Assembly: GCF_056712565.1 (NCBI RefSeq)
Contig: NZ_CM160072.1
Reading direction: 5' to 3' (one strand)
Length of the DNA stretch: 64,000 bases
The position numbers were made by a program. Below are positions 21,001-24,000 of this stretch, piece after piece. Each line of letters opens with the position of its first letter. Positions within the stretch are counted from its first letter, which is position 1.

Positions 21001-24000
21001 TGATATTGAACGCTATATAAATGACTGCAGTTACTTTGTTTTTTCTGCTGCTAAAGTTGTTAAAGGCGTGATTCAATGCATTGGTTACATTGACAAAAAT
21101 AACAAAGCAAGTTGCGATGAATTTTATTCAGGCAGCTATGAATGCTTGGATGATGATCAGGAAACACTGAACTATTTAAATGAATCATGCGCAGAGGGTA
21201 TAGACGCTGATAAAGATCTCATCAGGAAGAATGAGTTATTAGCCTTATCCCTGAAGGAATTGTATCAACTTCTCGTTTCAAAAAAATAACAAGTAATACG
21301 GCGAGCGATATGACGTGCCATGGGATATCCGCACCCAGCAGCATGTTGTCTCCACGATGTCCGCAGTTCGCTCATAATAGACATTCACTACAGTTATAGT
21401 AGAAGGTATGCATGCTGCTGAGTGGGGAAAGTGTGAAAGAAAAGAAGACAGCTGCTTTGTTTGTCGTCACGTTTATCTTCATTGGCTATGCAAGTCGTAA
21501 TACAAGGCGGGACAAAACTGAGACACATAAGGCCTCGCAATGGCTTGCAAGGCCACACATGTATTGAGATGTTAATAAAATGTAGACTTGTAATTTTGAT
21601 ATAAATGGTAGAGAAAATCTTTCCCCAAAATAAAAACGAACGTCAATGAAATCAAACGGTTGAATAAAGTTGATTTTGGCTAATACAAAGACAAGAAAAT
21701 AATATTTATGATTAAATATCAGCGAGTTGAATACATAATTTTTATATACTGCTGCGCCATATGGGCTGGACTGAAGCCGCAGACCTGATTGTTAAAGGTA
21801 TGGAAGGTGCAATCAACGCGAAGACCGTAACCTATGACTTCGAACGTCTGATGGAAGGCGCTAAACTGCTGAAATGTTCAGAGTTTGGTGACGCGATCAT
21901 CAAGAACATGTAATCTCTACATGTGTTAAATATTGAAACGGGCGTATAACACGCCCGTTGTTTTTATAAATATGTTAACCGTTATAAAATAACGTATCAA
22001 AAGTCAAGTGAACACATTTCAAATATCAATTTGATCGTATTGGTCTGGTGATTATTTATGGGGAGCAATAAAAAGACAGTATTAATCATCCATAGGGATA
22101 GTCTCTGCACTTTTATTTCCATTATGCTAATGCCTTACTGAATTATGAAGCATTTTTTAAGCTCCCAACTTTAGCTAGATTAATGGTTTATTATTTTCTA
22201 CATCTTCAATATATAAAAGCGTATTATCAATGGCGTAGTAACTGCGTTTGTTATGATTAACATCAGTAACCCACCGGAAAACGCCAGCGCCTGCCAGTGT
22301 TGAACAGTATTCCCGAAATGTAGATTTTCCGCGAATATGAAGCAATGCGGCCTCTTTTATTTTAGCTGGGTTCTTGGTCGTACTAACTTTTAACAGGTTC
22401 CTGGTTCCTCTTAATAACAAAACCGTGTCATCGTGAGTAATAATTCTGATGTTATCCGTAGCCAGATAATAAATGTAATGTGCAATACGGTGATGTTTTA
22501 ATTCTGAATAAAACCAGGAGAAGTTTTGCTCTTTTCTCACTTGCTCAAACATCTTTTGAAAAACAACGACCTGATCCATCAGGATAATAACCTCTTGTTA
22601 GGTGTGAGACTGCGTAGTGTGCACGATCGGTTTTACCACTTCAATCTGGTCTGTCCTTTGGCTGTGATATGTACAAAGTGTGAAAGGGGGATTACCTGAA
22701 TTCTCCCGGTGGGCATTTTGCAACGGACCAGCTCCGCTACAAACGCTGGTGTGGGTTCAGATTATAACATTCTGTCTAAGGGGCGGGATAAAGGTGAATT
22801 TAGGGGGCATGAAAGATGACTTTATAACCTTGCTCACCCCAGTGTTGTAAAAGTTCGTTTTGCCTTCTCGTTGGTGCCATGCCTGTCCAGACAATCAATG
22901 TTTGCGTTGGGAACAGTTCCGGGCGCGGCGATTCAATGGGATCAGCAAGAACAGAAATGTGCCATCCTGACAATGATAAACGCCATGCTTCCAGCCACAA
23001 TCGTGCTCTCTCTTCAACATTCCACGCCATCAGAATGGCCTCTTTACCGGGCTTACGGCGCATTTCGAAAAGTGAGGCCGCTGCGTATTCAATTAATGCG
23101 CCGTCAAACATACTGCTCATAATGCGGGAGGTGTTGTGATCAAGCACGAGACGCTGGCGAACAGGAAGGTAAACATGATTAATCAATTGATCTACTGGGT
23201 ACTCTCGACCCAGTGAAATAATTCGCGCGCGTAGTTTGGCTGGATTAGCCATACGAAGAATTGACATCATCTCTTCTTGCAGGCGGTTCCAGTCATCTTG
23301 CGTATCCTGGCTGGTAGTTTCCAGTAATGCTTTAACTTTGCCTACAGGAACGCCATTACTTATCCAACGCTTAATCTCTTCGATGCGTTGTATGTCTTCT
23401 TCATCAAAGAGTCGGTGTCCGCCTTCACTGCGTTGTGGTTTTAACAAACCGTAGCGGCGTTGCCAGGCCCGGAGAGTGACAGGATTAATCCCGCAACGTT
23501 CAGCAACATCACCAATGCTGTAATAAGCCACAATTCCTCCTTGCGATCATAAATCTCCGTCGCCTCTACACGACCCAATAATACTTTGTACAATATATGC
23601 TAAAATTGTACAAAGTATAAATAAGATTTCAGCTAAATTGGATGAAACATTATTTTTAATGTGGATTAAATTAAAACATAACGTATTCATTTTCACGATG
23701 ATTTCCAGAAATCATGCGAAATAATGTGCTGAAAATTATTTTTTCTCCGGCCACGCAACTGAAGGGATACCATTCAATTTAGCTTTGGAAAACAGATCTC
23801 CCTGAAACATCTCAATTCCTGCAGATTCAAGCCACATCCACTCTTCTGGTGTTGCCACGCCCATAGCAGAGACTTGAATTTCAAGTGATGTACAGCATTT
23901 CATGATCGCCTGAATAATTGCCTGCCGTGGTCCGCTTTTATGAACATTGGTAATCAATTCCTGACTGATTTTAATTCTGTCAGGCTGGAAGCGTGACAGG

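Follow-up and report, generated by a model that had tools for sequence, protein, structure and literature searches.

The question raised by this locus is what the roughly 460 bp at positions 21290–21748 of the window (the whole stretch of 64,000 nucleotides under analysis) may do, the initial annotation having described them as AT-rich, non-coding DNA just inside attR with room for a small protein or an sRNA, on evidence that it rated as weak. Judged by sequence comparison, a phage-21-type prophage sits in icd here and the segment forms the phage-derived inner side of its attR; we consider it likely that the whole consists of the P arm of attP together with a conserved hairpin downstream of int. 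Both the recombination arm of attP/attR and the conserved hairpin on the opposite strand had been missed at first reading. The stretch is nevertheless largely ordinary and already described, and nothing in it is clearly new; its importance beyond annotation is little, the practical consequence being that an annotator should neither leave it empty nor look for genes in it, but enter a phage-21-type attR arm (the P arm of attP) together with a putative terminator. The following parts can be distinguished within the stretch and at its host-side border:

21290–21354, unstranded: phage-21-specific spacer, following a 256-aa hypothetical gene (20519–21289)
21355–21508, unstranded: block A, a conserved segment at the end of the lambdoid b region, with 81% identity to lambda 27323–27464
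21433–21567, plus strand: small ORF of 44 aa (GTG start) or 51 aa (in-frame ATG at 21412), of doubtful coding status
21509–21568, unstranded: block B, 60 bp that are conserved next to attP/attR across phages whose integrases differ
21523–21562, minus strand: extended hairpin, proposed from folding and a terminator scan as a terminator/retroregulator of leftward (int) transcripts
21569–21745, unstranded: P arm of the phage 21 attP, that is, the phage-derived arm of attR, with 100% identity to phage 21 attP DNA
21619–21630, plus strand: Int arm-type dodecamer CTTTCCCCAAAA, present as a single copy in the P arm
21650–21662, plus strand: match to the IHF consensus, AATCAAACGGTTG, H1-like, between the arm site and the core
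21717–21729, plus strand: match to the IHF consensus, TATCAGCGAGTTG, H2-like, next to the core
21746–21913, plus strand: icd 3' fragment (RefSeq UTI89), attR core and bacterial arm, outside the stretch and marking the prophage end

The placement just inside attR was borne out. Both phage 21 records (M61865 and OL657228) are 100% identical to the stretch over 456 bp, and the phage 21 attP remains identical up to and past 21746; the icd 3' fragment of UTI89 in RefSeq corresponds to 21746–21913 of the window. Homology to icd thus sets in at about 21746, where the stretch ends and abuts the crossover core at the junction of prophage and host. The translation of an ORF at 21761–21913 is the Icd C-terminus, and a terminator scan places the icd terminator at 21937–21959. 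In OL657228 the order is cargo, small ORF, icd-like 165 bp, terminator, three dodecamers, int and xis, and the present DNA is like phage 21 in its sequence over the whole stretch, its dodecamer, its icd-like 165 bp and its int/xis order. It differs in being integrated, such that only the P arm and core are present here as attR, while the three int-proximal dodecamers belong to attL, outside the window. The description as AT-rich suits 21569–21745, at 24.3% GC, but not the left part, which ranges from 42.9 to 53.8% GC (53.8% for 21290–21354, 42.9% for 21355–21508 and 50% for 21509–21568); the whole stretch has 37.9% GC vs. 49.7% for the window. Likewise, the description as non-coding agrees with the RefSeq genomes, which carry no annotation there, but not with OL657228 and several other phage records, in which the small ORF is called.

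The AT-rich part has the makeup of a lambda-type attachment site, as far as sequence can tell: it lies beside the core, arm-type repeats are found on both arms, and IHF consensus sites stand between. The dodecamer (YYTTCCCCAAAA, the consensus being taken as annotated in OL657228) occurs four times in the phage 21 attP, always in one orientation, vs. 0.15 occurrences expected; three copies are in tandem beside int and one is in the P arm. The copy at 21619–21630 is the only one in the 64-kb window, and from 21619 to the last dodecamer the span in the phage is 397 bp. Wang et al., in work dating from 1997, are said to have delimited a minimal phage 21 attP of 366–418 bp, bounded by the outermost dodecamers. 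Matches to WATCARNNNNTTR number 14 in the window over both strands, two of which fall inside the 130-bp arm, and direct repeats of GTTGAATA at 21659 and 21726 overlap and extend the two IHF matches. Positions 21569–21690 are 97–99% identical among four icd-type prophages, the block A copies of which are only 43–56% identical. In the model that these features suggest, the arm-binding domain of the integrase would bind the dodecamer at 21619–21630 on an AT-rich scaffold, IHF would bend the DNA at 21650–21662 and 21717–21729, and the excisionase would presumably bind between the Int and IHF sites; together with attL, the complex of Int, IHF and excisionase could then form the excisive intasome. 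The anatomy is that of the lambda attP P arm (P1, H1, P2, X1, X2, F and H2), which is likewise an AT-rich arm between cargo and core, with an Int arm-type site some 120–130 bp from the core and IHF consensus sites in distal and proximal positions. However, there is no sequence similarity to lambda in the arm, only one arm-type repeat is found here on the P side, and the P' side of phage 21 is long compared with that of lambda, with the icd-like 165 bp and a terminator between the core and the three other repeats. An additional Int arm site was considered in the form of a 9-nt inverted match between the Shine-Dalgarno-like TGGGGAAAG and the dodecamer; it was rejected, as the match is at chance level and is kept in phages with other integrases.

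To the left of the arm, block B recurs in phages that do not share this integrase. It is 93% identical to a segment of the K-12 prophage DLP12 located between ompT and envY, some 75 bp from the argU fragment, it is present in SfI, SfII, SfIV, SfV, 2G7b and HK75, and it was found in 108 viral contigs. It remains 85–95% identical where block A falls to 43–56%. On the minus strand, block B is predicted to fold into a hairpin with an inner 10-bp stem (21531–21554), a GCCA loop and an outer 7-bp stem, 17 bp in total, followed by a U-rich tail (UUAUGUGUCUCAGUUUUGU) that extends to about 21511; the scan predicted a terminator-like match on the same strand, with a 10-bp stem containing six G-C pairs and the tail TTATGTGT. 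The predicted folding energy is -23.7 kcal/mol (z -3.5) on the minus strand vs. -17.2 kcal/mol (z -1.6) on the plus strand. Across 16 variants, pairing is retained in 89.6% of cells on the minus strand vs. 76% on the plus strand, with three pairs changed on both sides; variants of the 21 and DLP12 types keep 16–17 of 18 pairs on the minus strand vs. 12–15 on the plus strand. The variants show strand-biased G-U pairs and keep the outer stem. Covariation in the hairpin did not exceed shuffle controls, and is weak because the variants are few and close. The order int (on the minus strand), attP and then hairpin is seen in phage 21, SfII, 2G7b and HK75, block B points the same way with respect to int in all phages examined, and in DLP12 the hairpin adjoins attR. 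In the SfII record KC736978, a "putative rho-independent terminator" is annotated on the int-sense strand between attP and gtrA; it is the same element, with 91% identity and the same orientation to int and attP, although SfII has a different integrase and a core in the thrW tRNA, and its element, free of any overlapping small ORF, is separated from the core by only about 75 bp. A full-text search found no paper containing the hairpin sequence. The CII binding sites that OL657228 annotates within the hairpin were set aside, being bare TTGY-N6-TTGY matches without a plausible -10 element.

From its position, strand bias and conservation we infer that the hairpin probably ends or destabilizes integrase transcripts. 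In the free phage the hairpin lies downstream of int across attP, where it would be met by leftward int transcripts; the inner 10-bp stem and the tail UUAUGUGU could act as an intrinsic terminator, and transcripts that read through would add 7 bp, in which the U-rich tail itself is paired, to give a 17-bp duplex, a candidate RNase III site by analogy with the logic of tI/sib in lambda. In lambda retroregulation, the RNase III site arises in antiterminated transcripts alone, and int is lost from them (PMC5300877). The block B hairpin resembles tI/sib in being the first strong hairpin encountered by int-sense transcripts past attP, in being separated from int in the prophage and, as modeled, in its two-stage stem, the inner stage terminator-like and U-rich in its tail, the outer one closed only when transcription reads through; when folded, the lambda tI/sib hairpin likewise gives an interrupted stem of similar kind in the corresponding position. 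However, block B does not align to lambda sib (27535–27585), and the predicted stem of sib is about 21 bp vs. 17 bp in the phage 21 hairpin, the U-tract of which is interrupted. A diverged copy of the block B hairpin does exist at lambda 27480–27513, about 40 nt beyond lambda tI, and pairs better on the plus strand (15 vs. 13 pairs; -32.5 vs. -17.9 kcal/mol). A plus/minus BLAST match had raised the idea that this second lambda hairpin is an inverted copy of that of phage 21; the match reflects the palindrome, and the idea was rejected because HK75 joins a lambda-type stem to a 21-type left flank in the same orientation. Phage 21 seems to be without a lambda-like tI/sib, with the block B hairpin in its place. 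An icd-type terminator hairpin lies between int and the block B hairpin in phage 21 and might already stop some int transcripts, and in the Sf- and DLP12-type phages the hairpin is only about 75 bp from the core and could overlap the recombination arm. In the prophage, the hairpin is at the opposite end from int and is therefore unable to act on int after induction; there it would, in addition, block host transcripts arriving from the direction of ycgX.

Alternatively, conservation of blocks A and B could reflect a gene, with the 44- or 51-aa frame as a genuine accessory gene whose product, expressed from the prophage, is a small protein of the inner membrane. The initial statement that no ORF of 60 aa or more is present was correct, the longest inside 21290–21748 being 54 aa (minus strand, 21394–21558) and 51 aa (plus strand, 21412–21567), and the GTG frame quoted with it was recovered as described, from GTG at 21433 to TGA at 21565–21567, encoding VKEKKTAALFVVTFIFIGYASRNTRRDKTETHKASQWLARPHMY (44 aa). 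Block A contains the start of this ORF, with a purine-rich, Shine-Dalgarno-like GGGGAA 4–5 nt upstream, and among 41 unique type-1 variants the start codon is ATG in 21, GTG in 17 and ACG or ATA in three. In the product, a KEKK motif would precede 15 hydrophobic residues with basic ones on either side; it is annotated in phage 21 (OL657228) as CPT_21_32, "putative membrane protein," and gene calls in E. coli, Salmonella and E. albertii carry it in the protein database under no name other than "hypothetical protein." Among called proteins the core KEKKTAAxFVVTFIFIGYASRNTRWDKTETHK is nearly invariant, and each of the three most frequent polymorphisms within the frame is synonymous. However, all homologs are at least 73% identical, so this conservation may be mere relatedness, and variable alleles comprise 12 synonymous vs. 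28 non-synonymous changes where 20% synonymous would be expected by chance, with variable sites distributed 10:13:15 over the three codon positions. As to a helix of transmembrane length, the best 15-residue window has a mean Kyte-Doolittle value of 2.13, which speaks for the protein, but the best 19-residue window reaches only 1.18. Between phage types, the "membrane" segment shows replacements of V by D and of F by A. Disruption is frequent: seven of the 41 variants carry a stop at W37, three have lost the start codon, about 75 nt of the N-terminal half are deleted in L007, L055 and L098, L136 has a 1-nt insertion, and the type represented by L005 has no start. In lambda-type copies, indels of 1 and 2 nt (lambda itself) and a 7-nt gap (other lambda-type variants) change the frame after residue 16, and the C-terminus is not kept. 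Block B, which makes up the C-terminal third, is moreover retained in SfII and DLP12, where the ORF is absent. First-order Markov simulations of the stretch yielded an ORF of at least 51 codons in 60% of cases and of at least 44 codons in 78%; an ORF of such size is expected by chance, and its presence alone is therefore not significant. A promoter scan found no sigma-70-like promoter upstream, and three versions of the peptide had no match in Pfam, PHROGs or NCBIfam at E values up to 1. We thus regard a genuine protein-coding gene as unlikely, and on sequence grounds the small reading frame is probably not a conserved protein; block A and the small ORF, which runs across both blocks, most likely do not constitute a conserved protein gene. 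What is conserved is the nucleotide sequence.

A further scenario would make the locus a trans-acting sRNA or a type I toxin-antitoxin pair, in which a plus-strand mRNA encodes the hydrophobic peptide and an antisense RNA ends at the minus-strand hairpin. Such an arrangement is suggested by the overlap of the 3' end of a hydrophobic ORF with a stable opposite-strand hairpin bearing a U-rich tail, and by MF374379, where the lambda counterpart (27372–27533, plus strand) is labeled "antisense RNA," although that label carries no evidence. The peptide is also like the type I toxins Hok/Gef, Ldr and TisB in its size (44–51 aa) and in having a basic N-terminus before a hydrophobic stretch. It is unlike them in lacking a family match, in the length of the hydrophobic stretch, only 15 residues, in the lack of any cognate antisense RNA or promoter found, and in a frame that is not conserved between phage types. 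Against an antisense RNA, no promoter-like site for a minus-strand transcript was found inside 21560–21760, and the overlap is limited to the 3' end of the ORF and does not include the translation start. On the minus strand, the hairpin is preceded by the integrase-specific arm, and since that DNA varies with the phage type, an antisense RNA that is conserved and has a promoter to itself is improbable. No Rfam match was obtained, at E values up to 1, in 21290–21748 or in the lambda, SfII and DLP12 counterparts. This scenario is accordingly held to be very improbable. The svsR sRNA of the NC-SV prophage, which occupies the same icd site, was considered and maps to the 3' end of cI and not to the stretch. 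The earlier suggestion of a small protein or sRNA therefore survives in part: the plus-strand frame recurs in related prophages and the position of its start is kept, but selection on it is weak, it is often disrupted and is not kept between phage types; for an sRNA, no Rfam family matches.

It is also conceivable that neither block A nor block B does anything in itself, and that the two represent a shared linker, inherited by descent and spread through homologous recombination between lambdoid prophages at the boundary of cargo (b region) and integration functions. The module does sit exactly at mosaic breakpoints: its left side varies between prophages (sit, mcrBC-like, ompT, retron or gtr genes), and so does the spacer flank here, where the left side differs in every other variant of the module, while its right side depends on the type of integrase. 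Parts of the module also occur apart, as block B alone or as the left part of block A with block B, and an 18-nt inverted partial copy of block A (21328–21345, corresponding to 21411–21428) suggests past rearrangement. However, a mere linker accounts poorly for the greater identity of block B than of block A, for a hairpin maintained with strand-biased G-U pairs and some double changes, or for the constant orientation to int, and we give this explanation a minor share of the probability, about the same as that given to the protein-coding gene. At the other extreme, blocks A and B (21355–21568) could be imagined as a portable prophage-end cassette, usable with any integrase and working on both strands: on the int-sense strand a terminator/RNase III retroregulator followed by a C-rich Rho-loading tract, and on the other strand a small hydrophobic peptide whose mRNA overlaps the hairpin, the peptide mRNA and int read-through being mutually coupled as antisense RNAs. 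Such a cassette is very improbable.

For the preferred reading, in which the P arm is joined to a hairpin downstream of int, a modest wider interest lies in the finding of a 60-bp hairpin at the same place in lambdoid and in Shigella serotype-converting phages with unrelated integrases. Should it prove to be a general int terminator/retroregulator, a textbook mechanism of lambda would hold for many prophages of medical importance, among them the elements that carry sit, gtr and ompT in ExPEC, Shigella and EHEC, and the hairpin would offer a handle on Int expression in them. Block A was found in E. coli prophages with unrelated cargo and integrases. A short sequence within it, CTCATAAC, was examined as a possible tRNA anticodon-loop remnant, since its pattern was also found in tRNA-like sequences, and discarded, the tRNA-like loci being unrelated and an anticodon stem being absent. 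Finally, the minus strand of block A is C-rich and G-poor and may possibly serve as a Rho-utilization-like tract on the int-sense strand; the C/G ratio rises to 3.1 in a 78-nt window starting at 21390, the highest value between 21000 and 21930.

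The stretch at 21290-21748, between a plus-strand gene for a 256-aa hypothetical protein (20519-21289) and the icd 3' fragment, is the attP/attR arm already known from phage 21, together with a conserved hairpin that is probably an int-sense terminator or retroregulator. Across 456 bp it is identical (100%) to phage 21, both in M61865, the 1991 att/int/xis record, and in OL657228, the complete genome, and, out of 5426 complete genomes of E. coli, about 740-1050 carry the whole stretch. The arm has already been sequenced and described for phage 21, and public records annotate both the small ORF and the hairpin, each at least once. 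The initial annotation, which described an AT-rich, non-coding stretch just inside attR and lacking ORFs of 60 aa or longer, is confirmed as an observation, as the stretch abuts the icd 3' fragment (from 21746 in the RefSeq annotation of UTI89), nothing is annotated across it in the RefSeq records of complete E. coli genomes, and the ORF listing agrees. The quoted GTG frame is present from 21433 to a stop at 21567 (44 aa, or 51 aa from an ATG at 21412). AT-richness holds for 21569-21745 (24.3% GC) and not for the left 280 bp (43-54% GC), the stretch averaging 37.9% GC vs 49.7% for the window.

The source chromosome is UTI89-like ExPEC, and the cargo of its lambdoid prophage in icd includes sitABCD. 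This iron/manganese ABC transporter (sitDCBA, 16383-19832, minus strand) is also found in phage 21 itself (OL657228). The 256-aa ORF, at 31-38% GC, is a cargo gene beside sitABCD and corresponds to CPT_21_31 in the phage 21 genome. Its PHROG match is phrog_20520 (function unknown; E 1e-177), and neither Pfam nor NCBIfam gave a hit. In free phage 21 the cargo is followed by CPT_21_32, the small ORF, under the label "putative membrane protein". Next come an icd-like pseudogene of 165 bp, a terminator of the icd type and three dodecamers in tandem, which OL657228 lists as attP subsites (consensus YYTTCCCCAAAA); int and xis then lie on the opposite strand. That genome was annotated with gene callers, TMHMM and similar tools, without experiments (PMC9119081). 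Two features of the stretch have these coordinates:

21554-21531, minus strand: palindrome in block B, the hairpin element at 21509-21568; 10 pairs in the terminator scan, tail TTATGTGT
21619-21630: arm dodecamer, about 120 bp inside the core, the single copy in the 64-kb window

The segment 21569-21745 is built like the P arm of a lambda-type attP, the part that integration turns into the phage side of attR. A motif search of the phage 21 locus returned four dodecamer copies in one orientation, vs 0.15 expected, three beside int and one equivalent to 21619-21630. The outermost copies span 397 bp; Wang et al. (1997) reportedly placed the minimal 21 attP at 366-418 bp, with limits set by the outermost dodecamers. 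The IHF consensus WATCARNNNNTTR is matched perfectly at 21650-21662 and 21717-21729 (14 matches in the whole window, both strands), and both matches run on into a repeated GTTGAATA. Among four icd-integrated prophages of differing cargo (sit, mcrBC-like, ompT/acetyltransferase), 21569-21690 is 97-99% identical, the core-proximal 55 bp 78-82%, and block A (about 21355-21508) 43-56%. The P arm also holds a promoter-like site (21676-21703, plus strand; TTGGCT, 16 nt, AATAAT) that faces the core and, past it, the icd 3' fragment. An ATG at 21761 is in frame in that fragment (50 aa), and the icd terminator stands at 21937-21959. A weak Rfam match to STnc150 (21927-22075, minus strand; 26.5 bits against a gathering score of 60, E 0.007) lies outside the prophage, in the icd terminator-ymgL spacer, and is probably due to chance.

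The left part of the stretch is, on sequence comparison, a module common to lambdoid phages, its left flank varying phage by phage and its right flank following integrase type. Block A is 81% identical to lambda 27323-27464, non-coding DNA of the ea59-attP interval, and block B matches, at 93% identity, DNA of DLP12, a cryptic prophage of K-12, in the ompT-envY interval, about 75 bp off the argU-derived attR fragment. Block B is also present in SfI, SfII, SfIV, SfV, 2G7b and HK75, and in 108 viral contigs. In E. coli PEC395 (L011 2501-2645) a block A copy sits directly 3' of intS, beside tRNA-Arg, a free-phage arrangement within the chromosome that hints at the remnant of a prophage, either deleted or in tandem.

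On the minus strand, the block B hairpin is predicted to form a stem of 7+10 bp, interrupted by a single 1x1 internal loop (-23.7 kcal/mol, z -3.5), whereas the plus-strand fold is weaker (-17.2 kcal/mol, z -1.6) because several G-U pairs turn into C-A mismatches. Over 16 distinct variants, 89.6% of cells are paired on the minus strand vs 76% on the plus strand, and slid-register controls fall to 22-60% paired. Of the 18 minus-strand pairs, 16-17 are retained in every 21- or DLP12-type variant. Three pairs are altered on both sides; covariation among the 16 variants does not exceed shuffle controls. In every free-phage genome examined, block B lies 3' of int, on the int-sense strand and past attP, at about 465 nt from the int stop in phage 21 (icd-like insert included), 130 nt in SfII, 150 nt in 2G7b and 230 nt in HK75. 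In the SfII record it is entered on the int-sense strand as a putative rho-independent terminator, and the 261-bp gtrA-int spacer in which SfI attP was placed includes it (PMC3636060). Just past the hairpin, the int-sense strand has the neighbourhood's most C-rich, G-poor tract (C/G 3.1), which, speculatively, could be a Rho-loading site.

In lambda, the downstream sib site brings about the destruction of int carried on read-through pL transcripts; in the prophage, sib is separated from int (PMC5300877). The position of block B and its two-tier stem would fit this logic. At the equivalent place lambda has a tI/sib hairpin of its own (predicted 6+12+3 bp, U6 tail), the like of which is absent from phage 21 by terminator scan and lambda sequence comparison. 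Lambda also carries a diverged block B copy (L004 680-715, lambda 27480-27513) about 40 nt past its tI/sib, for which the plus-strand fold is far more stable (-32.5 vs -17.9 kcal/mol), a strand bias opposite to that of phage 21 and DLP12. The sole remaining point of interest is block B as a candidate general tI/sib equivalent in the many lambdoid and Sf-type phages without lambda's own.

It is unlikely that the small ORF encodes a functional protein. Random sequences of matched composition contain ORFs of the 44-51-codon class in 60-78% of cases, so the frame alone carries no meaning. Its start position is conserved across 41 unique type-1 variants (ATG in 21, GTG in 17, ACG/ATA in 3), GGGGAA precedes the first codon, and the peptide MKEKKTAAPFVVTFIFIGYASRNTRWDKTETHKASQWLARLYMF appears among the hypothetical proteins annotated in E. 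coli, Salmonella and E. albertii. However, variable alleles comprise 12 synonymous and 28 non-synonymous changes, spread 10:13:15 over codon positions, and indels of 1, 2 and 7 nt shift the frame after residue 16 in lambda-type copies. Seven variants stop at W37, three lose the start, L007, L055 and L098 have an N-terminal deletion, L136 a frameshift, and the diverged L005 copy no start. The C-terminal third is block B, kept where the ORF is absent; the hydrophobic run is just 15 residues, a promoter scan found no promoter 5' of the frame, and Pfam, PHROGs and NCBIfam returned no family.

The suggestion of a small protein or sRNA finds little support. The frame is often disrupted, and neither the stretch nor its lambda, SfII and DLP12 counterparts match an Rfam family. 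A plus-strand ncRNA, "antisense RNA", is annotated across the lambda DNA corresponding to blocks A and B in MF374379 (phage DN1; L122 1550-1711, lambda 27372-27533), citing similarity to a BL21(DE3) annotation and giving no evidence; it too is without an Rfam match. The recently described sRNA svsR, from a prophage of this type, maps to cI and not to the stretch. The deletion in L007, L055 and L098, which come from viral contigs and from E. coli N17, is internal and recurrent, is of about 75 nt (aligned window about 21392-21470), and joins CACTACA to TTTATCTTC. With it the ORF loses its start and N-terminal half, while left block A and all of block B are kept. Restricted to the phage 21 version of the module is an 18-nt inverted repeat (21328-21345 / 21411-21428, 89% complementary; TCCGCACCCAGCAGCATG / CATGCTGCTGAGTGGGGA), the left arm of which partly duplicates, in inverted orientation, the block A segment bearing the ORF's SD and upstream ATG; it could mask the ribosome-binding site in the upstream-gene transcript or, equally possibly, be a rearrangement scar.
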